Of a DNA stretch of 64,000 bases, positions 10,175 through 55,397 are shown one piece after another (the stretch's first letter is position 1; the number at the start of each line of letters is the position of its first letter). Source of the stretch: Burkholderiales bacterium. Lineage in GTDB: Bacteria; Pseudomonadota; Gammaproteobacteria; Burkholderiales; SG8-39. Location of the stretch: assembly GCA_035577785.1 (NCBI GenBank), contig DATLUZ010000019.1, positions 1,498 to 65,497 of the forward strand, in the 5' to 3' direction. The notes under the pieces are model-generated. The model had not been told where the DNA came from and searched no databases. It saw nothing but the letters and a program-made list of their open reading frames with translations. The position numbers were made by a program, and so were the translations under genes.

Positions 10175-11091
10175 TGGAGCTGGCGTTCTTTTGCGTGGAC
10201 CAGGGCGGTGATCGCCTGGTTCACCGGCGCCGCGGCGCCGACATCGCGCCCGACGCGCGGAATCGAGCCGTTGATCACGTCGATCTCGCTCTTTCGGCCG
10301 GCCATCAGGTCGAGCAGGACCGAGGGGCGCGCGCCCGGGATTTTCGAGGCGAATTCGCGCGTGTAGGCGACCGGGTCGTCGAAGCCCAGTCGCACGCCTT
10401 TCTTGCGCGCAACGCTGAATGCCTCGGTGGCACAAGCGGCGGAGACGCCCGCCATGTCCGGATCGGCCATGACCTCACCCACCGTCTGGCCGGTGAGCGC
10501 GCACGGTCCGGACACGGAACAGTTGCAGATCAGCTTCTCCCACACCAGCTGGTCGATGTCGTCGAACACCTTGACGCGGAAGCCGGCGCTCTTCCAGGCC
10601 TCCTCGACTTTCTTCAGTCGCTCGGTAATCGGACCGCCGAACTCGCCCAGGCGCACAAGCTCCATGCCGTTGTGGTGCGCGTGGCCCGGCGCGCGCATCG
10701 AGGCGCCGAAGCCGCCGACCACACCCACCATTACGCGCTCTTTTCCGAGGACCGATGCTGCCGTTTCCGGTCCGCCGAGGCCGTTTTGGATCGAGAGGAC
10801 CGGGGTCTCGCCTTTCAGCAGAGGTTTCAGCGATTCTGCGGCTGCCGTGACGTGCATGGCTTTAGTAGCGAGAACCACCAGATCGCAAGCCCCGGCTTCG
10901 CGGGCATCGGTCGTGGCGTTCAGGCGCACCGTGCGGTCGCCGGAGGCGCCTTCCACCCGCAGTCCGCGCGAGCGCATCGCGTCCACGTGCTCTTTCCAGC
11001 GATCGATGGCCCACACCTCATGGCCGGCGGACGCGAAAAGCGCGGCGTACACGGAGCCCATGGCTCCCGTGCCTACGATGGCAATCTTCAT
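10162..11091 (-). CDS. 2-dehydropantoate 2-reductase family (PanE/ApbA) oxidoreductase
   Basis: N-terminal MKIAIVGTGAMGSVYA dinucleotide fold and family-typical length. 13-nt overlap with the next gene in the operon. Confidence 0.75.
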   Translation of the reverse strand: MKIAIVGTGAMGSVYAALFASAGHEVWAIDRWKEHVDAMRSRGLRVEGASGDRTVRLNATTDAREAGACDLVVLATKAMHVTAAAESLKPLLKGETPVLSIQNGLGGPETAASVLGKERVMVGVVGGFGASMRAPGHAHHNGMELVRLGEFGGPITERLKKVEEAWKSAGFRVKVFDDIDQLVWEKLICNCSVSGPCALTGQTVGEVMADPDMAGVSAACATEAFSVARKKGVRLGFDDPVAYTREFASKIPGARPSVLLDLMAGRKSEIDVINGSIPRVGRDVGAAAPVNQAITALVHAKERQLQCSS

Positions 11092-11103
11092 TCAGGGAAG
11101 ATC

Positions 11104-11126
11104 AAAACGTGGTCTGTCCCTGTTTT
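11104..11126. repeat. R1 repeat unit AAACGTGGTCTGTCCCTGTTTTT (single copy)
   Basis: Identical 23-mer occurs in reverse orientation at 24315-24337; the 18-nt core recurs at 24360-24377. The copy is intergenic, between the reductase start and the thiolase stop. Confidence 0.8.
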
Positions 11127-14517: not shown

Positions 14518-14721
14518 TCAGAACGCGTCCGGCTGTTCTTCGATGCGGGTCGCCTGATTGATGTGCTGCGCCGGGACGTAGAAGTTTTCGAGGGCCGGCG
14601 TGGGCGTTTGGACGACGGGAAGCGAGGCGTCCGACTGGTATGGCCGCGGCGAGCACGCCGTGACGGAGAGGATGCCCAGGACCAGAATCGCTGCGGGGAT
14701 GGCCAGTTTGATGTTGCGCAT
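14518..14721 (-). CDS. 67-aa lipoprotein with conserved C-terminal tail (tail protein 1)
   Basis: AGGAGA Shine-Dalgarno sequence 7 nt upstream. Signal peptide plus lipobox (ILSVTAC). The tail LENFYVPAQHINQATRIEEQPDAF is repeated in the protein at 20241-20765. Confidence 0.7.
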   Translation of the reverse strand: MRNIKLAIPAAILVLGILSVTACSPRPYQSDASLPVVQTPTPALENFYVPAQHINQATRIEEQPDAF

Positions 14722-14811
14722 GTCGGTCTCCTGTTTTGTGGGTTCGGGTTAACGCGAGGCCAGTATCGCGACCTCTCCCGACGCGATCAGCGCCGCGTTA
14801 CACTGGCTTTT

Positions 14812-14826
14812 TGTGCCGTAATCACA
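14812..14826. promoter_or_regulatory. CRP-type palindrome A: TGTGC-CGTAA-TCACA (extended arms TTTTGTG-N7-CACAAAA, 14809-14829)
   Basis: Lies in the divergent region between tail protein 1 and CRP paralog 1. Same 15-bp architecture as the sites at 15489, 19923 and 20846. Confidence 0.6.
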
Positions 14827-14843
14827 AAATCGCGTCCTGACGC

Positions 14844-15485
14844 ATGCCTCCGGACCAGGCTCCGTTCGCGCATCTCGACGAGCAGGCACTGCGCGGCCTT
14901 GCCCCGGGGGGCGCGGTCAGGTCGTACCCGCGCAACGTCGTGGTGGTGAGCGAAGGCGACCCGACCGACTCGCTGTACGTGGTGTTGTCGGGACGGGTGA
15001 AGGTCTTCGTCGCCGACGAGAACGGCAGGGAGCTCGTCGTCAATACCATCGGCACGGGCGACTACTTCGGCGAGCTGGTGCTGGACGGCCAGGCGCGCGC
15101 GGCTTCCGTCATGACGCTCGAGGCGTCGCGTTTTTTCGTGATTCCGCAGCGCGACGCCGACGCGCTGCTCTCCGGCAACCCTCAGTTCGCGCGGCACCTG
15201 GTGCGCAAGCTCATCGGCAAGGTGCGCTCTCTCACCGAGCAGGTGCGCAACCTCGCGCTGAGGGACGTCTATGCCCGCTTGGTGCGCTTCCTCGAGGAGC
15301 AGGCCGTGGAGGACGGCGGCAGGCGCATTGTGCGCGAGCGCCTCACGCAGGCCGACATCGCTGCGCGGATCGGCGGCTCGCGGGAAATGGTGAGCCGCAT
15401 CCTGAGCGACCTTTCCGCGGGCGGTTACATCCGCGTCGAGGCCAAGCAGATCGTGCTGCTGCGCAAGCTGCCGGCGCACTGGTGA
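14844..15485 (+). CDS. Crp/Fnr-family cyclic-nucleotide-binding transcription factor (CRP paralog 1)
   Basis: cNMP beta-roll (GDYFGELVLDGQARAASV) and C-terminal HTH with CRP-type recognition helix GGSREMVSRIL. No FNR Cys cluster. Confidence 0.85.
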   Translation: MPPDQAPFAHLDEQALRGLAPGGAVRSYPRNVVVVSEGDPTDSLYVVLSGRVKVFVADENGRELVVNTIGTGDYFGELVLDGQARAASVMTLEASRFFVIPQRDADALLSGNPQFARHLVRKLIGKVRSLTEQVRNLALRDVYARLVRFLEEQAVEDGGRRIVRERLTQADIAARIGGSREMVSRILSDLSAGGYIRVEAKQIVLLRKLPAHW

Positions 15486-15488
15486 CGG

Positions 15489-15503
15489 TGTGCATGCGTC
15501 ACA
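15489..15503. promoter_or_regulatory. CRP-type palindrome B: TGTGC-ATGCG-TCACA
   Basis: Starts 4 nt after the CRP1 stop, within a block of about 50 nt conserved with 19921-19970. TAGGGT lies 52 nt downstream of the site centre. The micro-ORF ATG is 89 nt downstream. Confidence 0.6.
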
Positions 15504-15584
15504 GAACTGGCGTGCCGCAGGGCGTCGAGGCCGCGCGCGCCGAGGGCTAGGGTAGCTCCGTCAACTGAACGGAGGAGGTGGCGG

Positions 15585-15770
15585 ATGGATACCCTGGTCG
15601 ATGCGCTCACAATAGCAATGGCGCTTCTGTGCGTGGTCTTTATCGGGTACGGCGCCTGGCTATGCCTGCCGCCGCTTCAGCGTAAGCGGCCCGCCGAGGC
15701 GTCTGCACCCACCTCCGTCAGGAAGCGCGTCCGGTCCATATCGGAGAGGCTTTCGGCAAGCAGCAGGTAG
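15585..15770 (+). CDS. 61-aa single-TM micro-protein (TM unit 1)
   Basis: GGAGGAGG Shine-Dalgarno sequence before the ATG. MDTLVDALTIAMALLCVVFIGYGAWLCL is paralogous to 20035-20166 and to an internal helix of 20241-20765. The 3' 94 nt run antisense into the kinase gene. Confidence 0.5.
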   Translation: MDTLVDALTIAMALLCVVFIGYGAWLCLPPLQRKRPAEASAPTSVRKRVRSISERLSASSR

Positions 15771-17116
15771 AACCGCTCCGACGAGGTCGTCTGGGCGGCC
15801 GCCTTCTTGACCAGGATCTTGGCGATCGGCCCGATGTACGTGGCAAGCCGGCGCTGCGCCGCCTCGATCCGCTCCGCGGTGAGCGCGGCGTCGGTCGGGA
15901 TGCCGGGACGCGGGCCGGTGCCGGAGGCGCGCGGGCCGGTGCCTGACGCGGCGCGCGGCGCGCCGCTGAGCGCGCCGCGCGTCGCCATGAACGCCTTGCG
16001 CTGCTCCTCCGTGTCGAGCTCGCGCGCCATCGTGGCGTAAAGCTCGTCGACGTCGAGCGTACGCCGGCCCGCGCGGCGGACCATCACCTTCGCGACCGGC
16101 CCGACAAAGCGCGCGAGCTGGGTTTCGATCTGCTTGAGGAGCGCGGGGTCCCAGCCCGGCGGCGGCGCGGTGCTGCGTCCCGCGGTCGGCGTGGCGGGGT
16201 TGGAGCCGCTGCCTGGATTGGTGGGCTCGATCTTCGCGGCACGCGGAGCCTCGGAAATGATGGTTTCCTCGGAGAGCGTCGCGCTGACGGGCGCAGCGTG
16301 CGCGTCGAGCAGCGCGCCGAGGAACGCGTTCGCGCTCTCGAAGCGTTCGACCGGCTTCTTGGCGATGGCGCGGGCGATGACGGCGTCGTAGGCGGGCGGG
16401 ACCGGTGGATCGCGGCGCACCTGCGAAGGGGGCAGCGGATTGTCGTGGCAGACCTTGTACGCGGCGGCCTCCACCGAGCCGGCGAAGGGCTTGACGCCGG
16501 TGAGCAGCTCGTACATCACGACGCCGGCGGAGAAGACGTCGGCGCGCCAGTCGATCGTCCCGCCGGTGTAGTGCTCCGGCGCCATGTAGCCCGGCGTGCC
16601 GATGACGAAGCCGGTCTGGGTGAGGTTCGACGAGTCGATCCGCGCGATGCCGAAGTCCGCGATCTTGAGCTTGCCGTTGCGCATCACGATGAGGTTGGCG
16701 GGCTTGATGTCGCGGTGCCAGACGCCCTGCTCGTGCGCGTAGCTGAGCGCTTCGAGAAGCTGGGTCATCGTCGACACGGCGTCGCTCTCCCCGAAGCGCG
16801 TGCCGCGGGCGAAGTATTCGCGCAGGCTGTTGCCCTGGATGAACTCCATCGCAATGTAGGCGAGCCCGTTCTCCTCGCCGTATTCGTGGACCCCGACGAT
16901 GCCTGGGTGCGTGAGGCGCCCGGCCGCCTGCGCCTCGTTCCTGAAGCGCGCGAGCAGGGCCTGGGTGGTGTCCTCCTCGGTCCCGTCCAGGCGGATGGTC
17001 TTGATCGCGACGGTGCGGCGGATGTTGGGGTCGAAGGCCTTGTAGACGACGCCCATGGCGCCGCGGCCGACCACCTCGGTGATCTGGTACTTGCCGATCC
17101 GTTCGATCTGCGCCAT
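15677..17116 (-). CDS. Hanks-type Ser/Thr protein kinase, no TM segment, two tandem C-terminal repeats
   Basis: GRGAMGVVYKA, VAIK, HRDIKPANL, DFGIA and GTPGYMAPE. After a Pro-rich linker there are two units of about 55 aa sharing LAxx[VI]GP[VI]AK[VI][ML]V[RK][RK]A. Confidence 0.9.
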   Translation of the reverse strand: MAQIERIGKYQITEVVGRGAMGVVYKAFDPNIRRTVAIKTIRLDGTEEDTTQALLARFRNEAQAAGRLTHPGIVGVHEYGEENGLAYIAMEFIQGNSLREYFARGTRFGESDAVSTMTQLLEALSYAHEQGVWHRDIKPANLIVMRNGKLKIADFGIARIDSSNLTQTGFVIGTPGYMAPEHYTGGTIDWRADVFSAGVVMYELLTGVKPFAGSVEAAAYKVCHDNPLPPSQVRRDPPVPPAYDAVIARAIAKKPVERFESANAFLGALLDAHAAPVSATLSEETIISEAPRAAKIEPTNPGSGSNPATPTAGRSTAPPPGWDPALLKQIETQLARFVGPVAKVMVRRAGRRTLDVDELYATMARELDTEEQRKAFMATRGALSGAPRAASGTGPRASGTGPRPGIPTDAALTAERIEAAQRRLATYIGPIAKILVKKAAAQTTSSERFYLLLAESLSDMDRTRFLTEVGADASAGRLR

Positions 17117-17123
17117 CCGCGGG

Positions 17124-18023
17124 CTACTCTTCGAGCATCTTCATCGCCTGAGCGACGCTTTTCTTCATGCGGTTGAAGGAGTCGGCGAGCGTGCGGATCT
17201 CGTCCCGGGAGCGCAGATGGAAGTCGGGGACGTCCATGTTGCCCATGCTGACCTGGTCGGCGAGCTTCGCCAGCCGGGACACCGGCATGATGACCATCGA
17301 AAGGAGCATCGCATTGAGGACAATGCCGACGAAGAGGAAGACGCCGGCGAGCGACAGCATGAACGTGCGGAAGACGGTGCGTGCGCGCTGCGTCGGAACT
17401 TCGGTCGGCACCGACACCACCTGCGCACCGATGATTTCGTTCATCTTCCAGCCGAAGCCGTTCGCCGGCCCGTACCGGTCGATCAGCGTCTTCGGCGCGG
17501 CGTCGACGGTGCTGTGGCAGGTCAGGCAGGCGCCGTCGCGTATCTGGATCGGCCTGGCAATGTACAGCAGGCGCCCGGCGGGGGTGTCGCGCTCGCCGAT
17601 GATCTCGGTGCTCTCGGCATTGTTGCGAAACTGGTTGACCACGTCGGTCTCCCAGTCCACCGCGCGGTTGCGCGGATTCGTCGGGTTGAGCGTCGCCTCC
17701 TTGTAGGCGTACTCCGGAAACTTCTTGCGCAGGCCGTTGAAGACTTCGGCGGCGGAGTAGGCAGGCACCGACTGCGGCAGGAAGCCGTATTTCATCTGGG
17801 TCTGGAGCAGGGGGCCGACCTGGCTCGACGTGTAGCTGCGCGTGGCGAGCGCCGCTTCCATGATCAGCCGCGCGCTGTGCTGCATTTCCTCGCGTGCGTT
17901 TTGCTGCAGTAATGCTTCCGCCACGTAGGCCGCGATGCCTAGGCCGAGCAGGAAGACGGCGACGAACACCAGATTGAACTTGACGATCAGTCTCATTTGA
18001 GCTCCAACGTTGCGCTCATTCAT
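17124..18023 (-). CDS. membrane sensor: periplasmic DUF3365 (Tll0287-like, CxxCH heme-c) domain + HAMP, no output domain
   Basis: TM1, then a periplasmic domain of about 190 aa with ACLTCH, then TM2, then HAMP (PVSRLAKLADQVSMGN...IRTLADSFNRM), then the stop. It ends 7 nt before the kinase start. An alternative start exists at 17996. Confidence 0.75.
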   Translation of the reverse strand: MNERNVGAQMRLIVKFNLVFVAVFLLGLGIAAYVAEALLQQNAREEMQHSARLIMEAALATRSYTSSQVGPLLQTQMKYGFLPQSVPAYSAAEVFNGLRKKFPEYAYKEATLNPTNPRNRAVDWETDVVNQFRNNAESTEIIGERDTPAGRLLYIARPIQIRDGACLTCHSTVDAAPKTLIDRYGPANGFGWKMNEIIGAQVVSVPTEVPTQRARTVFRTFMLSLAGVFLFVGIVLNAMLLSMVIMPVSRLAKLADQVSMGNMDVPDFHLRSRDEIRTLADSFNRMKKSVAQAMKMLEE

Positions 18024-18948
18024 TCGGCCTTGCGGGCGTCGCCTCGGCTGCAGTCGGCGGTGCTTTTGCCGCGTCCACCAAGGGCGGGGGCTTGGGCAGG
18101 TGCTTCTCCGGGAAGAGGATCGGGTCCCATTCGGGATGGAACCGCAGGTTGGCGATAAGCGCCTTGCGAAACTCGGGGTCCTGCGCCCGGGCGCGCATGC
18201 GCTGCATCAGCGGGCGACGCAGCTCCGGCGGGCCTTTCAGCCAAGGCTCGACCTCCTCGTAGGTGAGGTCTCCGAGCCGACGCGGCGACACGTCCCGGTC
18301 CTTGAACGCGGCCAGCCGCTCGGGCAGGTTGTCGCGGTAGTAAGGTGGCATGGCCGCAACAAAGGCCGGCGCCGGACGCGGCTGGAGGACGCCCCTCTGG
18401 TCGGCCCGGCGCATATAAAACTGGCCCGCGCCGACCGCGACCGGACTGGCCGGAGTCGCCCGAACGAAGCCCTCGGCGAGCCGCAGGGCGCCGCTCTCGA
18501 CGAACAGGCTGGCTTCAGCGCTCTCGACGTGCAGCACGAGCACCCCGTCGGCGCTGCCGAAGCCGAAGAGCGGCGTGGTGACGCGCAGCGGCGCCGCCTT
18601 CGGGGCGAGAGCGAGCTTGGTCCAGCCCTGCAGCAGGTAAAAGTCCGAGACCGCCGCCGCCTTGGCGCCTCGGCCGGTGGCGCCGGCGAGCGCGGCCACG
18701 TGGAACCGACTCCGCGGCCCGAGGCTCACCCGCGCGCCATCGGCGAACGCGATCTGAACCAGCCCCTTGTCCGGCACCTCGACGATGTCGCCGACGTGCA
18801 TGCGCACGCCTTCGGCCAAAGCGAACCGGCCGGTAGCGCGCAGCAGAGCGGCGGGCCCCTCCACCAGCGTGACAACCGGTGGCGCTTCGGCGCCCATCGC
18901 GAGCATAGGAACCACCAGGCAAGCCGCCGCAAATGCCCCCGCAAGCAT
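18016..18948 (-). CDS. periplasmic FecR-domain protein
   Basis: Start at MLAGAF (18948) gives a signal peptide; the ORF extends to 19005. FecR-like pattern VTLVEGPAALLRATGRFALAEGVRMHVGDIVEVPDKGLVQIAFADGARVSL. 8-nt overlap with the next gene. Confidence 0.7.
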   Translation of the reverse strand: MLAGAFAAACLVVPMLAMGAEAPPVVTLVEGPAALLRATGRFALAEGVRMHVGDIVEVPDKGLVQIAFADGARVSLGPRSRFHVAALAGATGRGAKAAAVSDFYLLQGWTKLALAPKAAPLRVTTPLFGFGSADGVLVLHVESAEASLFVESGALRLAEGFVRATPASPVAVGAGQFYMRRADQRGVLQPRPAPAFVAAMPPYYRDNLPERLAAFKDRDVSPRRLGDLTYEEVEPWLKGPPELRRPLMQRMRARAQDPEFRKALIANLRFHPEWDPILFPEKHLPKPPPLVDAAKAPPTAAEATPARPNE

Positions 18949-19022
18949 TGAGCTCGGCGCCCTTTCTAGAATTCCGGGCGATACTATTCCGCGCGATCCA
19001 TTCACGTCAATTTGTCAGCGCC

Positions 19023-19904
19023 ATGTCAGAGCCGTTTTCCTGCGCGGTACTGTTTGCCGATATCAGCGGTAGCACTCGGCTGTACGAGGAGCTCGGAGAC
19101 GCCCAGGCGCTCTCCCGGATCGACCGCTGCCTGCGCCTTCTGCGCGATGCCGCCTTGGAATTCGACGGACGCGTAGTTAAGACGACGGGTGATGGCGTCA
19201 TGTGCTCCTTCGAGCAGGCAGAGTCCGCGCTGCAGGCGGCGCGGTTCATGCAGACGCGGCTGGCCGAGCAGGCGGCGCTCGGCGGCCCGTCCCTCGCCAT
19301 CCACGTTGGCTGCCATTACGGATCGGTGCTCGAGAACGGCGGCGACCTCTACGGCGACTGTGTGAACGTCGCCGTGCGCGTGGTCGGCCTGGCCAAGCCG
19401 GGTCAGGTCATAGCGACCCAGGAGGTGGTCGGCAGGATCGGCGAGAGCCTGCGAGGCAGGGTCCGCGTGCTCGACCACGTGGCCCTGAAGGGAAAGCGCG
19501 AGCCGCTGCAGATCTACGAGCTTTCGTGGCAGGATTCCGAGGAGCTGACCACCGTGGGTACCCGCCTGCAGGAGGCGCCGTCCCGCCTCAAGCTGGTGTT
19601 CGGAAGCCGGGAGATGTGGTTCGACGCGGCCGGGGGGAACGACCTCAGGCTTGGGCGCGACGCGGCGTGCGACATCGTGATCGTGGACCGCCGGGTGTCG
19701 CGGCAGCATGCCCGCATCGAGAAGCGCCGCGACAAGTTCATGCTCATCGACCAGAGCGCTAACGGAACCTACGTTGCCGTGAACGGGGAGTCCGAGATCT
19801 GCCTGCGGCGCGAAGAGCTGGTTCTGCGCGCGAGCGGACGCATCTGCATCGGCCACCGCACCGGCGACGCCGACGCTATCGTGGTGGAGTTCTATTGCCT
19901 GTAA
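19023..19904 (+). CDS. class III adenylate/guanylate cyclase fused to a C-terminal FHA domain
   Basis: Cyclase motifs: VLFADISGST and VKTTGDG (metal Asp residues, Lys), GDLYGDCVNVAVR (Asp, Asn, Arg). FHA motifs: LRLGRD...VSRQHARI...IDQSANGTYVNG-type. Confidence 0.85.
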   Translation: MSEPFSCAVLFADISGSTRLYEELGDAQALSRIDRCLRLLRDAALEFDGRVVKTTGDGVMCSFEQAESALQAARFMQTRLAEQAALGGPSLAIHVGCHYGSVLENGGDLYGDCVNVAVRVVGLAKPGQVIATQEVVGRIGESLRGRVRVLDHVALKGKREPLQIYELSWQDSEELTTVGTRLQEAPSRLKLVFGSREMWFDAAGGNDLRLGRDAACDIVIVDRRVSRQHARIEKRRDKFMLIDQSANGTYVAVNGESEICLRREELVLRASGRICIGHRTGDADAIVVEFYCL

Positions 19905-19922
19905 TACGCGCACCTGCCGGGG

Positions 19923-19937
19923 TGTGCATACGGCACA
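19923..19937. promoter_or_regulatory. CRP-type palindrome C: TGTGC-ATACG-GCACA
   Basis: Perfect 5-bp arms, 19 nt after the cyclase stop. TAAAGT lies 52 nt downstream of the centre, the same spacing as at site B. Confidence 0.6.
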
Positions 19938-20034
19938 GAACCGCAGTGCCTTGCGGCGTCGAGGTCCGCCCCGGTCGGACCTAAAGTGGTCTGCGACGGG
20001 CGGCACCCGCCCCCGCAGCCACCGAGGAGGTTCC

Positions 20035-20166
20035 ATGGACGCACTGGTGCTCGACATCGCTGTTCGTATCCTGTCCGGACTCTGCATGGCCCTGCTTATC
20101 TGGGGCGGATGGCTTTCCATCCGCGGCACCCCGCGCTGGACGGCCGGCGCCACGGTCCAGAGCTGA
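20035..20166 (+). CDS. 43-aa single-TM micro-protein (TM unit 2)
   Basis: GAGGAGG Shine-Dalgarno sequence before ATG 20035. MDALVLDIAVRILSGLCMALLIWGGWLSI is paralogous to 15585-15770. The upstream part of the listed 80-aa ORF is Arg-rich and unlikely to be coding. Confidence 0.55.
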   Translation: MDALVLDIAVRILSGLCMALLIWGGWLSIRGTPRWTAGATVQS

Positions 20167-20240
20167 GGCTCTCCCCCTACTTTCCCCGCCGCCTGGCAAG
20201 ACCCTGGGCCGGGCCGAGCGCCCGCAGAAACCGCCGGCGC

Positions 20241-20765
20241 TCAGAACGCATCCGGCTGTTCCTCGACGCGCGTCGCCTGGTTGGCGTGCTGTGCCGGGAC
20301 GTAGAACTTCTCCAGCGCCGGCGCCGTCGGCGCGGGATTCTCGCTCTGCGTCACCTGCTCGCGGCTCGGCTGGTGCGCGAAAGTCGCGCCCAGGACCGCG
20401 CCGAGCGACACGAGCGCCACGGCCGCGGCCGCGAGCGCGATGCCACGCTTCAAGCTCCAGAATTGACTGGCTGCGGTTCCCTGACCGATGCCGTGACGAT
20501 GTTTGCCGATTCTCATGACGACCTCCTGTAGCGTGCGAACGACGACGAGATACGCCCCGTACGCGAGAAGCGCAGCGGAGCAGATTTCCAGGACACGGAC
20601 CGCGAGGTCCAGCAATTCGGGCAGCCATTCCGTGGTGCTCGCGGCCATCTGCTGGAGCGCGATCCCGCTCCCGTCGGCAAAGACCTCGGCGCGAGCGTGC
20701 GAGCACGGCATCAGGGCCGCGGCGAGCGCGCCGCGGCTCAATCGCAGGACTTGGATGCGGTTCAT
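20241..20765 (-). CDS. 174-aa membrane protein: TM-unit-like helix fused to tail protein (tail protein 2)
   Basis: Start MNRIQV at 20765 with a GGAAGG Shine-Dalgarno sequence. The internal helix LLDLAVRVLEICSAALLAYGAYL matches the micro-proteins. A second TM follows, then the tail LEKFYVPAQHANQATRVEEQPDAF. Confidence 0.65.
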   Translation of the reverse strand: MNRIQVLRLSRGALAAALMPCSHARAEVFADGSGIALQQMAASTTEWLPELLDLAVRVLEICSAALLAYGAYLVVVRTLQEVVMRIGKHRHGIGQGTAASQFWSLKRGIALAAAAVALVSLGAVLGATFAHQPSREQVTQSENPAPTAPALEKFYVPAQHANQATRVEEQPDAF

Positions 20766-20845
20766 GTGGGCCCCTTCCGTGAAACTCTCGGGCCCAGTGT
20801 GCGCAAGCCGGGCGTCCGGTTCAGCGTCGCGTCGCACCCGATTCA

Positions 20846-20860
20846 TGTGAACTAATCACA
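20846..20860. promoter_or_regulatory. CRP-type palindrome D: TGTGA-ACTAA-TCACA
   Basis: Lies in the divergent region between tail protein 2 and CRP paralog 2. Its half-sites match the canonical CRP half-sites. Confidence 0.6.
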
Positions 20861-20919
20861 CAGCCGGGCGTTGCTTGCGCACGCTCCGGACCGGTACCAG
20901 AATGTCCGAAGAGGGGTAG

Positions 20920-21573
20920 ATGCAGGCATCGAAGCCGAAAGAGCCGTCGCCCTGCGACGTCCTGAGCGACGCCGAGCTCAAGGCGCTGTCCGAGCGCGCG
21001 ATCATGCGCGCGTTCGCGAAGAACACGGTGATCGTGAGCGAGGGCGACCGGGCCGATTCGCTCTACATCGTCCTTTCCGGCCGTGTCCGGGCCTACGTGA
21101 GCGACGACCAGGGCAAGGAGATGTTCCTCAGCGAGGCGGGCAAGGGCGAGTATTTCGGCGAAATGGCGCTCGACGAGGGGCCGCGCTCGGCCTCCGTGAT
21201 CACGCTCGAGCCGACCCGGCTTCTGGTCGTGCCGAAAGACGATTTCGCGGCCTTCCTCGCGAAGAGCCCCGAGTTCGCGCTGCACCTCGTGCGCAAGCTG
21301 ATCCGCCGGGTGCGCGCGCTCACCCACGACGTCAAGAGCCTGGCGCTCATGGACGTCTACGGCCGCGTGGCGCGCATGCTCCTCGATCTCGCCGTCGAGC
21401 GCGACGGCGCGCTCGTGATCGAGGACCGGCCGACGCAGCAGGAAATGGCGAACCGGGTCGGCGCTTCGCGCGAGATGATCAGCCGGATCCTCACCGAGCT
21501 GGCCGCCGGCGGCTACATCGAGGTCGCCCGGGACCGCATCACCATCTCCCGCACTTTGCCGTGCGGCTGGTGA
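20920..21573 (+). CDS. Crp/Fnr-family cyclic-nucleotide-binding transcription factor (CRP paralog 2)
   Basis: GEYFGEMALDEGPRSASV (canonical Glu...Arg-Ser cNMP contacts) and recognition helix GASREMISRIL. Clear paralog of 14844-15485. Confidence 0.85.
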   Translation: MQASKPKEPSPCDVLSDAELKALSERAIMRAFAKNTVIVSEGDRADSLYIVLSGRVRAYVSDDQGKEMFLSEAGKGEYFGEMALDEGPRSASVITLEPTRLLVVPKDDFAAFLAKSPEFALHLVRKLIRRVRALTHDVKSLALMDVYGRVARMLLDLAVERDGALVIEDRPTQQEMANRVGASREMISRILTELAAGGYIEVARDRITISRTLPCGW

Positions 21574-21590
21574 AGCTAAGATAGCCGGGC

Positions 21591-22166
21591 GTGCGTCTGT
21601 TCATCAAAAACAGGACCTTCGGGGGAGAAGGCCCGGCCGGGGGGAAGCTCAACCTCCGGCTGTCCGGTTTCGCCGCGCAGCAGATCGTCCCGGTTGACGA
21701 CATCGTGCGGGCCATCGACCGGCTTCCGGATTTTCATCTCGAGGGTCTGCGCGAGATCGCCTATCTGCCCGAATACGCCCCGGACGTGCGCGCCTACCCC
21801 GCCTACCCGCGCTGTGCGCCGCAGGGCGAGTTCGTTCAGTCGGAGAGGCGCATTTTCGTCTACGGGTTCGACCGTCCCGCGATGTTCTTCCATATGCTGC
21901 ATCACGAGATCGGCCATTTCGTGTTCTTTCTGGTGCTCGGCAGCCGCATGAAGAAGCAGTGGGTCACGCAGCTCTTCCCGGAGTCCACTTGCGTGACGGC
22001 GTACGCCGGCAGGAATCCCTGGGAGGACTTCGCGGAGAGCTACGCTTACTACGTGCTCCAGCCTCGGCTTCTCGAGAGGAAGCTGCCCGAAAAGCACGCC
22101 TTCATGCGCGAGTGCGTCTTCTCCGGAGAGGCGTGGGCGCTCAAGGAAAGCGATCGCCTGGGATAA
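21591..22166 (+). CDS. HExxH metallopeptidase-like protein (MtfA/M90-like motif arrangement)
   Basis: GTG start 17 nt after the CRP2 stop. MLHHEIGHFVF plus a downstream NPWEDFAESYAYY. No signal peptide. Confidence 0.5.
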   Translation: MRLFIKNRTFGGEGPAGGKLNLRLSGFAAQQIVPVDDIVRAIDRLPDFHLEGLREIAYLPEYAPDVRAYPAYPRCAPQGEFVQSERRIFVYGFDRPAMFFHMLHHEIGHFVFFLVLGSRMKKQWVTQLFPESTCVTAYAGRNPWEDFAESYAYYVLQPRLLERKLPEKHAFMRECVFSGEAWALKESDRLG

Positions 22167-53128: not shown

Positions 53129-54219
53129 GCCAAAAACCACCCGCCGTCATCGGTCAGCGCGCCGAGGAGGTCGACACCCCGGCGCTCGTCCTCGACCTCG
53201 ATGCCTTTGAACGCAACCTCGACACGCTCGCCCGGGCAGTGGCGGGAAAGGTCCGGGTGAGGGCGCACGCCAAGACGCACAAGTCACCCGACATCGCAAG
53301 GCGCCAGATCGCGGCGGGCGCGGTCGGCGTGTGCTGCCAGAAGGTCTCGGAGGCGGAAGCGCTGGTGGAGGGCGGGGTGCAGGACGTCCTCGTCAGCAAC
53401 GAGATCGTTGGGCCGGCGAAGATCGCGCGCCTCGCCGAGCTTTCGCGGCGCGCACGTCTCGGTGTGTGTGTCGACAACCTCGACAATCTGCGGCAGATCG
53501 CCGCCAGCGGCGCGCGCCTCGACGTCTATATCGAGCTCGAGGTCGGCATGGGCCGCTGCGGCATCGCGCCCGGCGAGCCGGCGCTCGCGCTCGCGCGCGA
53601 GATCGCGAAAGCGCCCGGCCTGCGCTTCGGCGGCCTGCAGGCCTACCACGGCCGCGCGCAGCACGTGCGCTCGATGAGCGAGCGCCGCGCCCACATCGCG
53701 CGCGCCGCCGAAGCGGTGAACGCGACCAGGGCGCTTTTCAGCCGCCACGGCATCGAGACCCCGATCGTCACCGGCGCCGGCAGCGGCAGCTTCATGTTCG
53801 AGGTGGAGTCGGGCGCCTGGGACGAGATCCAGCCCGGCTCGTACATCTTCATGGACGGCGACTACGCGCGCAACGAATGGGCCGCGCCGCTGCCGCGCTT
53901 CGATCACGCGCTCTTCGTGCTGGCCACCGTGATGAGCCGGCCTTCGCCCCATGCCGCGGTCGTCGACGCGGGCCTGAAGGCTTCGAGCGTCGACTCCGGC
54001 ATGCCTACGGTGTGGGGAAAGGAAGTGCTCAAGTTCACCAAGGCCTCGGACGAGCACGGCTTCATCGAAGGACCCGACCCGCCGGCGCTCGGCGAGAAGC
54101 TCTTCCTCGTCCCAGGGCACTGCGATCCGACCGTGAACCTTTACGACTGGTACGTCTGCGTTCGCAAAAATGTCGTAGAGGATTTGTGGCCGATAACTGC
54201 CAGAGGGGCTTTGACCTAG
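53125..54219 (+). CDS. DSD1/D-threonine-aldolase-family PLP enzyme (alanine-racemase-N fold)
   Basis: ATGA overlap with the MFS stop. PLP lysine region VRAHAKTHKSP. C-terminal PGHCDPTVNLYD. Confidence 0.8.
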   Translation: MSQKPPAVIGQRAEEVDTPALVLDLDAFERNLDTLARAVAGKVRVRAHAKTHKSPDIARRQIAAGAVGVCCQKVSEAEALVEGGVQDVLVSNEIVGPAKIARLAELSRRARLGVCVDNLDNLRQIAASGARLDVYIELEVGMGRCGIAPGEPALALAREIAKAPGLRFGGLQAYHGRAQHVRSMSERRAHIARAAEAVNATRALFSRHGIETPIVTGAGSGSFMFEVESGAWDEIQPGSYIFMDGDYARNEWAAPLPRFDHALFVLATVMSRPSPHAAVVDAGLKASSVDSGMPTVWGKEVLKFTKASDEHGFIEGPDPPALGEKLFLVPGHCDPTVNLYDWYVCVRKNVVEDLWPITARGALT

Positions 54220-54250
54220 CAGGAAAAGTTGTCTCCGCAAGGGCCGGAGA

Positions 54251-54676
54251 ATGGCGAGCAAACCACATGTCCTAGCAGCGTTTACGCACCACATCATTCC
54301 ATACCTGGAACGGACGCTCGGAAGCTACGTCGATGTGGTGTCGGCCCATACGGTCGAAGACGCTCTAAGGACGCTGGAGGACGATCGCGCGATAGCTCTC
54401 GTCCTGTGCGGCGTCTTTTTCAACGGGTCGCGCATGTTCGAACTGATGCGCGCCGTCAGGAACAAGAATCCGCGTTTGCCCTTTATCGCTTGTCGCGTGC
54501 TGCCGCTTGAGTTGGCGCAAGTCTCCATCGACGCACTAACTATTGCGCTGGAGAGTCTTGGCGCCCGTTATGTCGACGTGCCTCGACTCGAGGAGCAGTA
54601 CGGCGAGGAGCAGGCGCAGGCGGAGTTTCGCTCGGTCGTTCTGTCCAAAATTCCTCGAGCGGCCGGCAAGAGGTGA
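54251..54676 (+). CDS. hypothetical protein, possible degenerate CheY-like (pseudo-receiver) fold
   Basis: The alternating strand/helix pattern resembles a receiver, but the acidic pocket is absent (VLAAFTHH, LVLCGVFF). Third codon positions are mixed, unlike the host-typical GC-rich pattern. Confidence 0.4.
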   Translation: MASKPHVLAAFTHHIIPYLERTLGSYVDVVSAHTVEDALRTLEDDRAIALVLCGVFFNGSRMFELMRAVRNKNPRLPFIACRVLPLELAQVSIDALTIALESLGARYVDVPRLEEQYGEEQAQAEFRSVVLSKIPRAAGKR

Positions 54677-54904
54677 AACTGATGCCGCTCGATCAGCTTC
54701 TCATTCCGGTCCAACCGGTTTGCCGTAGCCGTTCTACCACAGTCGGGCACGCTGCTCCGGGCTTTTTTATTTCTGCTCGGCCAACGAACTGGAACAGCTC
54801 GTCGAATTGCATCCGTCGAAGACATTTTGAGCAAGGACGGCGAACGGCTGTCGCTATGATGATCCGCTTCCTCGACACGACGCGAACAGGCAAGAAGAAA
54901 GTAA

Positions 54905-55234
54905 ATGGCTCAGCCAATGATTGCTCTAGCCATTGTGGCCAAACTTGCCTACCAAGCCGTGACCGGCAGCGAGCAGGCCGATGAAGAGATCCTGAACAAT
55001 GTGGCTGCTGCTATCGCAGGCTGGGTGGATGTTTTTGATTGCCGGCCCGTTCAGTCTGGAGGCGAGCCCATCTTGTTGGCATCGCATGAAGTTCGCTCCG
55101 GGAGCTTCGGCGGCGGCGGTATGACGCTCGACTTCAACGACGGCCGGCCAAGCAAGTCGAACCTTTGCATAGGGGTGAACGACGTAAGCCGGGTCATCGT
55201 CGAAATCGGTCACCGATTCAAGCCGCCGTTATGA
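54905..55234 (+). CDS. hypothetical protein
   Basis: 109-aa ORF in the lower-GC islet. No motif recognised. AAGAAAG lies about 8 nt upstream of the ATG. Confidence 0.35.
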   Translation: MAQPMIALAIVAKLAYQAVTGSEQADEEILNNVAAAIAGWVDVFDCRPVQSGGEPILLASHEVRSGSFGGGGMTLDFNDGRPSKSNLCIGVNDVSRVIVEIGHRFKPPL

Positions 55235-55397
55235 AGAGCGCCGCAAGCGGAAGTACCCGGCCTGCGCCATGCGGCGGGCGCCTTTTCTTCCTGCCTGAGG
55301 GGCGACGAGCCGCTGGTGAAACGAGGGCTCAATCAGCATTCGCGGCTGGACCCTCGAGCAGCTCAGATCGCTGATACGGCTTGCAAAATAAGCGCGG

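Follow-up and report, generated by a model that had tools for sequence, protein, structure and literature searches.

Does a gene cluster that encodes a Cache_heme receptor, a Hanks-type Ser/Thr kinase, a nucleotide cyclase fused to an FHA domain, two CRP-family regulators and a set of small envelope proteins form one signalling pathway, or do its parts only happen to be neighbours? The question is raised by an island at positions 14518-22166 of the stretch of DNA analysed here (the window; 64,000 nt, contig DATLUZ010000019.1 of assembly GCA_035577785.1, positions 1,498-65,497). Labels beginning with L denote loci of relatives, and all other positions are window coordinates. We distinguish two layers. 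The first is an operon for a FecR-like periplasmic protein, a Cache_heme-HAMP (CHH) receptor and the kinase, divergently paired with the cyclase-FHA gene; this layer is widely conserved in Betaproteobacteria. The second, specific to a clade of soil Burkholderiales, consists of the two CRP genes and four promoters of the same design, belonging to two micro-proteins and two envelope proteins that share a tail. That the two layers make up a single signalling cluster, running from a heme ligand through the kinase, phosphothreonine (pThr) and the FHA-cyclase to cAMP, CRP1/CRP2 and the small envelope genes, is the reading we favour, and we consider it somewhat probable.

A relay of this kind had been proposed in an initial annotation of the island. 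Its eleven open reading frames (ORFs) were all found again, at the same coordinates and on the same strands, and its domain inventory is real in Pfam and NCBIfam, whereas the functional chain from kinase to FHA-cyclase, cAMP, the CRPs and the small genes is something that we infer. The Pfam domains are cNMP_binding with HTH_Crp_2 (twice), Pkinase, Tll0287-like (DUF3365) with HAMP, and Guanylate_cyc with FHA, together with a weak FecR match. The same island was recovered from many independent soil metagenome assemblies; the closest genome loci are metagenome-assembled genomes (MAGs) with 88-95% identity for cyclase-FHA, and the organism is an uncultured soil member of the Burkholderiales.

The four-gene sensory core

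Eighty loci from species-representative genomes were found by alignment of cyclase-FHA homologues, and all island proteins were mapped onto them; the counts for the core refer to the 63 loci in which the sequence reaches 3.8 kb or more upstream of cyclase-FHA. The core proved to be syntenic, where the initial annotation had left room for scattered homologues: the genes for the FecR-like protein, the CHH receptor and the kinase lie divergently from cyclase-FHA in 38 of the 63 species-level loci, and always as all three or none. The core is present in all 14 loci with at least 60% cyclase-FHA identity and persists to about 45% identity, in Casimicrobiaceae and further Burkholderiales MAGs. Since the genes around it differ completely in the more distant genomes, the four core genes appear to travel as a unit.

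In the window, the FecR-like gene (18016-18948, minus strand) is followed after 19 nt by the CHH gene (17124-17996, minus strand), 7 nt past the stop codon of which the kinase gene begins (15677-17116, minus strand), and these short gaps indicate a single operon. A sigma-70-like promoter for it (18981-19010, minus strand; TTGACG-16/18-AATAGT/TAGTAT) lies in the 74-bp divergent region that separates the operon from cyclase-FHA (19023-19904, plus strand). The starts used here for the CHH receptor (17996), the FecR-like protein (18948), cyclase-FHA (19023) and the TM+tail protein described below (20765) were revised from homologues and from the gene calls of other assemblies.

The CHH receptor (290 amino acids) has a periplasmic Cache_heme domain (DUF3365/Tll0287-like, PF11845, E=8e-41) with the motif CLTCH, a transmembrane (TM) helix and a terminal HAMP domain, and carries no output domain. 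Residues C166, C169 and H170 are invariant in 42 of 42 orthologues. The HAMP match covers residues 247-289 of the 299-amino-acid ORF and the protein stops 10 residues later; close homologues are all 290 amino acids long. The kinase (479 amino acids; Pfam, NCBIfam) is PknB-like (Pkinase, E=1e-51), with VAIK, HRD and DFG motifs and a TQT activation loop, and has neither a TM helix nor PASTA domains, the PknB_PASTA model matching its catalytic part only (residues 8-277). Its C-terminus is formed by two helical repeats containing FVGPVAKVMVRRA and YIGPIAKILVKKA, which match each other at E=2e-9, and an identical protein is annotated with PF26309 (DUF8082).

DUF3365 has recently been redefined as Cache_heme by the Crane and Zhulin laboratories, who described a Cache_heme-TM-HAMP receptor of Pseudomonas azotoformans that binds NO and shares an operon with a PknB-like kinase without PASTA domains; this kinase docks on the HAMP domain through two C-terminal helical modules and phosphorylates HAMP Thr256, more strongly with NO bound, and the downstream output of this CHH-Ser/Thr protein kinase (CHH-STPK) system is stated to be unknown (bioRxiv 10.64898/2026.05.25.727664, 10.64898/2026.02.01.703092). 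The pair in the window matches the CHH-STPK system by those sequence-level criteria that could be compared. Shared with P. azotoformans are the DUF3365/Cache_heme domain with CxxCH, the TM helix and terminal HAMP domain without an output domain, and the adjacent soluble PknB-like kinase without PASTA domains and with two repeats that carry a (I/V)GP(L/I/V)A(R/K)xxVxxA docking helix; the repeat helices of the window kinase, GP[VI]AK..V..A, match the published HAMP-docking helices IGPLARFLVRKSLN and IGPIARIVVSRALR. That the initial annotation knew of no described system of this composition is partly outdated, as the biochemistry and structure of a Cache_heme-HAMP receptor with a HAMP-docking Ser/Thr kinase are already the subject of these 2026 preprints. 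Unlike the system reported there, the window operon begins with a FecR-like protein and is paired with cyclase-FHA, and neither FHA, FecR nor cAMP is mentioned in the two preprints. No PP2C gene was found within 10 kb of the identical locus. Searches of PDB sequences with the CHH receptor and the kinase C-terminus gave generic HAMP/Tll0287 matches only, a large-database search with the CHH receptor returned only relatives of at least 75% identity, and the P. azotoformans orthologue did not emerge from an exhaustive search of representatives with cluster look-up, in which the candidate bearing Thr at its own position 256 came from Methylacidiphilales.

The FecR-like protein (310 amino acids) combines a signal peptide with a predicted FecR beta-domain and a helical C-terminal region that is conserved. 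For PF04773 the cutoff is 24 bits, which the window protein misses at 20.3-20.5; of its 17 orthologues, however, 15 give a match of E<=0.01, the best being 3e-7. It has no N-terminal anti-sigma part, as it begins with the signal peptide, and no gene for a sigma-70 family protein or TonB receptor lies within 10 kb in the identical locus; most simply, it is predicted to be a periplasmic co-sensor. A profile of its orthologues found no solved relative, and a single-sequence AlphaFold2 model (pLDDT 37) was unusable.

The cyclase-FHA protein (293 amino acids) joins a class III adenylate cyclase to a C-terminal FHA domain. In 83 sequences, the metal-binding Asp pair D13 and D57 as well as D108, N115 and R119 are at least 95% conserved, and among close homologues these residues and K53 are all invariant. 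The class III catalytic set is complete and of the adenylate cyclase type (K53/D108); the nearest solved relatives are adenylate cyclases, and the residues align with those of Ma1120 and 3mr7. The FHA domain (PF00498, E=4e-14) is at least 95% conserved at G211-R212, S226-x-x-H229 and N247-G248 in the same sequences. Between the two domains, the linker holds a threonine, Thr176 (WQDSEELT), that is invariant in 83 of 83 homologues while its surroundings vary, and it is most likely the phosphosite that the FHA domain is predicted to read.

Cyclase-FHA genes also occur in a second architecture (L035, L038, L046, L058, L064 and L068-L071), in which the gene is followed by a convergent one for a membrane Ser/Thr kinase of about 800 amino acids (804 in L038) with a large extracytoplasmic region, and then by conserved ORFs of about 230-310 amino acids that resemble secreted proteins or lipoproteins.

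Promoters, CRP paralogues and small envelope genes

The palindrome TGTG-N7-CACA occurs four times in the 64 kb (at 14812, 15489, 19923 and 20846), where 0.28 occurrences are expected, and each copy is intergenic within the island; none of 100 shuffles reached four. These sites, operator A (TGTGCCGTAATCACA, 14812-14826), operator B (TGTGCATGCGTCACA, 15489-15503, 3 nt past the CRP1 stop codon), operator C (TGTGCATACGGCACA, 19923-19937, 19 nt past the cyclase-FHA stop codon in the window and in all close relatives) and operator D (TGTGAACTAATCACA, 20846-20860), are odd palindromes of 15 bp. Their centres lie upstream of the ATG codons of lipoTail (98 nt), micro1 (89 nt), micro2 (105 nt) and TM+tail (88 nt, with the ATG taken at 20765), and, in addition, the centre of operator A precedes the CRP1 ATG by 25 nt and that of operator D the CRP2 ATG by 67 nt.

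When the four regions and their orthologues were aligned on the palindrome, a common design emerged, with GTG 8 nt downstream, a weak -35-like TCGA/CTGA and a -10-like hexamer with A at its second and T at its sixth position. The hexamers, GATACT for lipoTail (14762-14767, minus strand), TAGGGT (15548-15553, plus strand), TAAAGT or, in orthologues, TAGAGT (19982-19987, plus strand) and CACACT (20796-20801, minus strand), start exactly 52 nt from the palindrome centre. This spacing is fixed in the four paralogous and about 14 orthologous promoters, and the sequence between the two elements diverges. It would place the operator near -64, in the position of an upstream activator. Operators A and C are conserved in L001-L004, as are the lipoTail hexamer, which is identical there, and its spacing; among orthologues, the seven interior bases of the operators vary and the TGTG and CACA arms are fixed. 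In 1.19 Mb of related loci, a composite motif of the palindrome (one mismatch allowed), GTG and the hexamer at +52 is found 18 times, in every case beside cyclase-FHA or a CRP module. Past the GTG, operators A-D and their orthologues continue with GCGNCG(T/C)(C/T)GA, which may represent a third half-site or a point of contact with the polymerase. The CRP-type operators that the initial annotation had placed before the small envelope genes are thus real as four palindromes in one fixed promoter design found only beside island-type genes, but they are not canonical CRP sites: TGTGA-N6-TCACA (TGTG-N8-CACA) has no match in the 64-kb window.

CRP1 (14844-15485, plus strand, 213 amino acids) and CRP2 (20920-21573, plus strand, 217 amino acids) were both recognised by Pfam and NCBIfam, with PF00027 and PF13545 above their cutoffs. 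CRP1 has a cNMP-binding domain with FGE...RAA and a CRP-type helix-turn-helix whose recognition helix reads R-E-M-V-S-R (SREMVSR); in CRP2 the corresponding motifs are FGE...RSA and R-E-M-I-S-R (SREMISR). They belong to the CRP/FNR family and are not orthologues of E. coli CRP, scoring 98.8 and 117.5 bits against the cutoff of 266 of the NCBIfam CRP equivalog NF008732. The phosphate-binding cassette and the R-E-x-x-x-R helix are intact in both, and the nearest solved relatives of CRP2 are the true cAMP receptors M. tuberculosis CRP, GlxR, CAP and Vfr, which makes CRP1 and CRP2 the obvious candidates for binding the operators. We assume from these motifs that they bind operators A-D.

Four small envelope proteins are encoded downstream of the operators. 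LipoTail (14518-14721, minus strand, 67 amino acids) has a signal peptide, the lipobox VTAC and a periplasmic tail, PALExFYVPAQHxNQATRxEEQPDAF. Its description as a tail lipoprotein agrees with the lipobox in the window and in L001 (VAAC) and L003 (VTAC), but L002 and L004 read VAAF and have lost the cysteine, so that lipidation is not a conserved feature. The core of the tail is retained in orthologues, and so is an aromatic residue at the C-terminus. The family is small: 5.8e9 sequences yielded only 12 protein clusters. Tail genes were located in 24 metagenome loci, all of which derive from the island, and a CRP gene is adjacent in every one that has enough flank. Given the always-aromatic C-terminus and the periplasmic location, it is conceivable, as speculation, that the tails act as a feedback ligand.

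Micro1 (15585-15770, plus strand, 61 amino acids) has a single TM helix and a strong Shine-Dalgarno (SD) sequence, GGAGGAGG; it is called as a gene in some assemblies, and L001-L003 and L005 conserve its TM part. It shares its last 94 nt (15677-15770) with the 3′ end of the kinase gene, which is read from the other strand. The conserved C-terminus RKRVRSISERLSASSR is retained in L004 although the N-terminal TM part is gone; owing to the overlap, the conservation of this C-terminus is not independent and may reflect the kinase gene. Micro2 (20035-20166, plus strand, 43 amino acids; MDALVLDIAVRILSGLCMALLIWGGWLSI...) likewise has a single TM helix, with the SD sequence GAGGAGG, and is called as a 43-amino-acid gene in four independent assemblies.

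The TM+tail protein (20241-20765, minus strand, 174 amino acids according to gene callers, in an ORF that reaches 20846) combines a signal-peptide-like N-terminus, a TM helix like those of the micro-proteins, a loop, a second TM helix and the conserved tail. The N-terminus of its long form (20766-20846) is a signal peptide homologous to that of a periplasmic protein of about 250 amino acids (ADWNAIA...), the gene of which sits between TM+tail and CRP2 in L002 (about 10380-11126, minus strand) and L004. The window gene thus appears to be a fusion by deletion, its N-terminus being a remnant of this neighbouring gene. In L002, operator D drives this larger gene of about 250 amino acids.

It could be argued that the small ORFs and palindromes have no function, being chance ORFs in GC-rich DNA and hairpins or terminators left from duplication. 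The small proteins have no family match in Pfam or NCBIfam, the leader RNAs fold no better than shuffles, the overlap with the kinase gene inflates the conservation of micro1, and the four sites, as two paralogous pairs, do not count as four separate events. Nevertheless, we regard this explanation as very unlikely. The 52-nt spacing holds although the sequence between palindrome and hexamer diverges, the remaining ~1.2 Mb contain no further copy of the composite motif, the palindromes are not followed by T-runs, and the tail motif, operator and CRP gene recur together in the distant locus L062. The small genes are further supported by their strong SD sequences, the shared promoter design, TM helices that survive many substitutions and independent gene calls. 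Two RNA-level roles for these regions were also considered. Terminators were rejected, as no T-runs follow the palindromes and a terminator scan places none there, and a riboswitch or attenuator was dropped because the conserved leaders fold no better than shuffled sequences (z = -1.8, -0.5, -0.05 and -3.0).

The initial annotation had described the two flanks as paralogous copies, and this is borne out: CRP1 and CRP2 are 48% identical over 212 amino acids (E=5e-74), the C-terminal tails of lipoTail and TM+tail match at 23 of 26 residues (E=7e-16), and the helices of micro1 and micro2 are weakly similar (E=4e-4). In addition, micro2 resembles the first TM helix of the TM+tail protein (E=1e-5). 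Its further description of them as mirror-duplicated does not hold, since the two tail genes share the minus strand, the two CRP genes share the plus strand, and going from tail-CRP-micro on the left to micro-tail-CRP on the right involves no inversion or mirroring. A reading in which a three-part module was purposefully duplicated as a mirror image about the core, for symmetric bidirectional control, would fit the paralogous copies on both sides of the core in the window, L001 and L002; it is extremely unlikely given these co-oriented pairs in unreversed order, the tandem arrangement of both tail-CRP pairs on the kinase side in L003, L004 and most of the 24 metagenome contigs, and the single CRP+micro module in L005. 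Tail genes are sometimes duplicated in relatives, and the window layout is one variant of a fluid arrangement.

Weighing the proposed relay and its surroundings

In the relay that we favour, the periplasmic Cache_heme domain would bind a heme ligand, which would be NO if the P. azotoformans receptor is a guide, with the FecR-like protein possibly acting as a co-sensor. The HAMP domain would then change conformation and the docked kinase would phosphorylate threonines. The FHA domain would read a pThr, most likely the cyclase's own Thr176 (in cis, or in trans in a dimer) and otherwise one on the kinase (TQT loop), and its engagement would switch cAMP synthesis. CRP1 and CRP2 loaded with cAMP would activate the four small-gene promoters, and CRP1 would probably also repress its own gene from operator A. 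The reading of pThr by the FHA domain, the switching of cAMP synthesis, the activation by the CRPs and the role of the small proteins are all steps that we infer.

Several observations weigh against this relay, and those that concern the core are considered first. Twenty-five of the 63 cyclase-FHA loci have no CHH operon, and several loci show no kinase nearby (Azospira, Sulfuricella, Gallionella). Moreover, this clade has no invariant Thr in the HAMP domain. The end of its first helix (AS1) reads (V/I)-S-x-G in the family and V-S-M-G-N here, with Ser in 71 of 82 representatives and 42 of 42 orthologues; the next residue is Thr in 9 of the 82 representatives and Met in the window, at a position that may correspond to P. 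azotoformans Thr256, the acceptor at the start of the HAMP connector. The region of the published phosphosite would then read Ser-Met here, and the reported receptor phosphorylation may not carry over to this clade. FHA domains prefer pThr over pSer. Docking of the FHA domain on a phosphorylated HAMP domain was ranked below the linker Thr176 or the kinase's own pThr, the clade having no conserved HAMP Thr.

These points could mean that the kinase does not control the cyclase through the FHA domain, which would instead serve as a scaffold at the receptor complex, or as a reader of the pThr of another kinase, with the cyclase regulated otherwise. The many cyclase-FHA homologues without a kinase nearby and the HAMP domain without an invariant Thr would suit this explanation. 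Nevertheless, cyclase-FHA is co-inherited with the kinase operon in an all-or-none manner in 38 loci, and a different Ser/Thr kinase is encoded within 5 kb in 7 of the 18 loci that lack the CHH operon and extend at least 5 kb downstream; cyclase-FHA thus tracks kinases in general. Together with the conserved pThr-binding residues and the invariant Thr176, this makes such an explanation decidedly improbable. The side-by-side arrangement of receptor, kinase, cyclase, CRP genes and promoters suggests that cAMP is the output of the CHH receptor-kinase system.

For the second layer, most core-bearing genomes have no CRP gene within 10 kb, so that nothing beyond adjacency in a few clades is established for the CRP link. 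The modules of CRP and small genes, which the initial annotation had counted as part of the system, are a clade-specific addition that is absent from most core-bearing loci. Furthermore, TGTG-N7-CACA is found neither at the core operon nor at the cyclase gene, including the 74-bp divergent region. To our knowledge, the operator spacing is 1 bp shorter than in every characterised CRP site, and a full-text literature search for 15-bp operator spacing found no report of it. Finally, the TM part of micro1 is lost in L004.

CRP genes 63-75% identical to CRP1 or CRP2 directly adjoin cyclase-FHA paralogues in three other loci (L030, L062 and L067). A CRP2-like gene (71%) is followed by a second cyclase-FHA paralogue at 8977-10876 of L030, on the same 2.24-Mb contig as L018 and about 170 kb from the core locus. 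There, TGTGGAATATTCACA lies 17 nt before the start of the cyclase-FHA paralogue, and a feedback of cAMP-CRP on the cyclase gene is possible. In L062, an operator drives a 102-amino-acid membrane protein with the tail motif GYFPDQFVNQAKEIEAMPDTY (E=3e-6 to the window tail), and the CRP gene and then cyclase-FHA follow. The distant-clade locus L067 (2617-8492) has the core operon on the opposite strand to a cyclase-FHA gene, which is followed by a CRP gene (75% to CRP2) and a second cyclase-FHA gene. Separately, at L033 10941-11253 (also in L036, L037, L042 and L045), the same palindrome-hexamer promoter drives a 65-amino-acid soluble ORF that converges on cyclase-FHA, in a clade (47-49% cyclase-FHA identity) without a CRP gene within 10 kb.

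The alternative that the two layers are unrelated neighbours has to be weighed, in which the core acts alone through cAMP receptors elsewhere and the CRP/small-gene cassettes are a separate, fast-evolving regulon that answers to another cyclase or ligand. It accounts for the absence of CRP modules from most core-bearing loci, for their varying number, order and side among close relatives and for the lack of an operator before the core operon or the cyclase. It does not account for the constant place of operator C behind cyclase-FHA in all close relatives, for the CRP genes of the same subfamily that flank cyclase-FHA paralogues in three other clades, one of them preceded by an operator (L030), for the same promoter type beside cyclase-FHA in the L033 clade, or for tail genes that were never found outside the island. 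We therefore find it rather unlikely.

The relay from heme ligand to small envelope genes can be drawn more boldly, such that cAMP, made through a pThr176-FHA switch, is the output of the CHH-STPK system, that the two CRPs are private to it and act on an unprecedented 15-bp operator, and that the tails feed back on the FecR-like/Cache_heme sensor; this version is tentative and, in our view, doubtful. If the relay is true, it would be the first from a Hanks kinase to cAMP described in Proteobacteria, and would join gas or heme sensing, Ser/Thr phosphorylation and cAMP, which are usually studied apart in bacteria. It would also provide a defined phospho-switch residue and a CRP subfamily with a half-site spacing 1 bp shorter than any described. 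Gene neighbourhoods conserved in at least 38 betaproteobacterial genomes at the species level point to a specific output for the receptor-kinase pair, an adenylate cyclase that carries its own pThr reader, and, in one clade, to the whole path to the promoters. If the relay is wrong, what is left is still a well-documented clade-specific regulon grafted on a conserved sensory core.

Beyond CRP2 lies a gene for a 191-amino-acid HExxH protein (21591-22166, plus strand), which has a weak Peptidase_Mx match only (Pfam) and is probably co-transcribed with CRP2. It is absent from L001, L003 and L004 and present only in some relatives, in which it takes at least four positions in the island (after CRP2, beside fadB, after micro2 or after the tail gene; L002 3817-4346, L093, L099, L100 and L106), and it behaves as a shuffled accessory gene. 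As the initial annotation had noted, the island is flanked by a fadA/fadB-like pair on one side and an AMP-ligase/MaoC pair on the other. In Casimicrobiaceae and relatives (L043, L044, L048, L049, L053-L055, L059 and L065), a thiolase 37-40% identical to the fadA-like gene of the window is convergent with the kinase end, and in L044 an acyl-CoA ligase lies 8 kb away; a fatty-acid context thus recurs in a second clade, which may be a coincidence. A composition scan gave a GC content of about 68% for the window, even across the island, and a mobile element was rejected on account of this even GC, the absence of tRNA genes from the window and the synteny of the flanking genes in relatives. A patch at 54200-55250 is lower in GC (57% vs ~68%) and holds small ORFs of 141, 103 and 109 amino acids that bear no obvious identity. 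An Rfam scan of the island found no known RNA.

Comparison with known systems

The CRP layer resembles the Class I promoters of E. coli CRP/CAP, M. tuberculosis CRP, GlxR and Vfr in its cNMP cassette, its R-E-x-x-x-R helix, its TGTG/CACA arms and the position of the operator upstream of a promoter with a weak -35 element. It differs from them in the operator, which is TGTG-N7-CACA (15 bp, base-centred) instead of TGTG-N8-CACA and is centred at about -64 instead of -61.5, and, in contrast to E. coli CRP and its kin, two dedicated paralogues would serve a tiny local regulon.

The core has a counterpart in the threonine-phosphorylation pathway of type VI secretion, PpkA-PppA-Fha1 with the periplasmic TagR, the output of which is the assembly of the secretion machine. 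Here too, a periplasmic accessory protein, a Hanks kinase and an FHA reader are encoded together; unlike the window cluster, the secretion pathway has neither a second messenger nor a heme sensor.

The cyanobacterial Cya1 has an N-terminal FHA domain and a class III adenylate cyclase, and the cAMP receptor Sycrp1 controls cell-surface genes. Both systems thus have an FHA domain fused to a class III adenylate cyclase, with cAMP read, or in the window predicted to be read, by a CRP-family regulator. In the window, the FHA domain is C-terminal, a kinase and a heme receptor are encoded alongside and the CRP genes are clustered with them. Cya1 is not known to have a partner kinase or heme receptor gene beside it or to be clustered with the CRP gene, and the operator of the Cya1/Sycrp1 system is canonical.

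Linker Thr176 has its closest parallel in GarA and OdhI of Actinobacteria, in which an N-terminal ETTS motif is phosphorylated by PknB or PknG and then bound by the protein's own FHA domain. As in these proteins, a Hanks kinase is accompanied by an FHA protein with an invariant Thr after acidic residues (EELT176) outside the FHA domain, and this analogy suggests that EELT176 may be part of an intramolecular or intradimer pThr-FHA switch. In GarA and OdhI the effector is an inhibitor of metabolic enzymes, whereas here it is a nucleotide cyclase.

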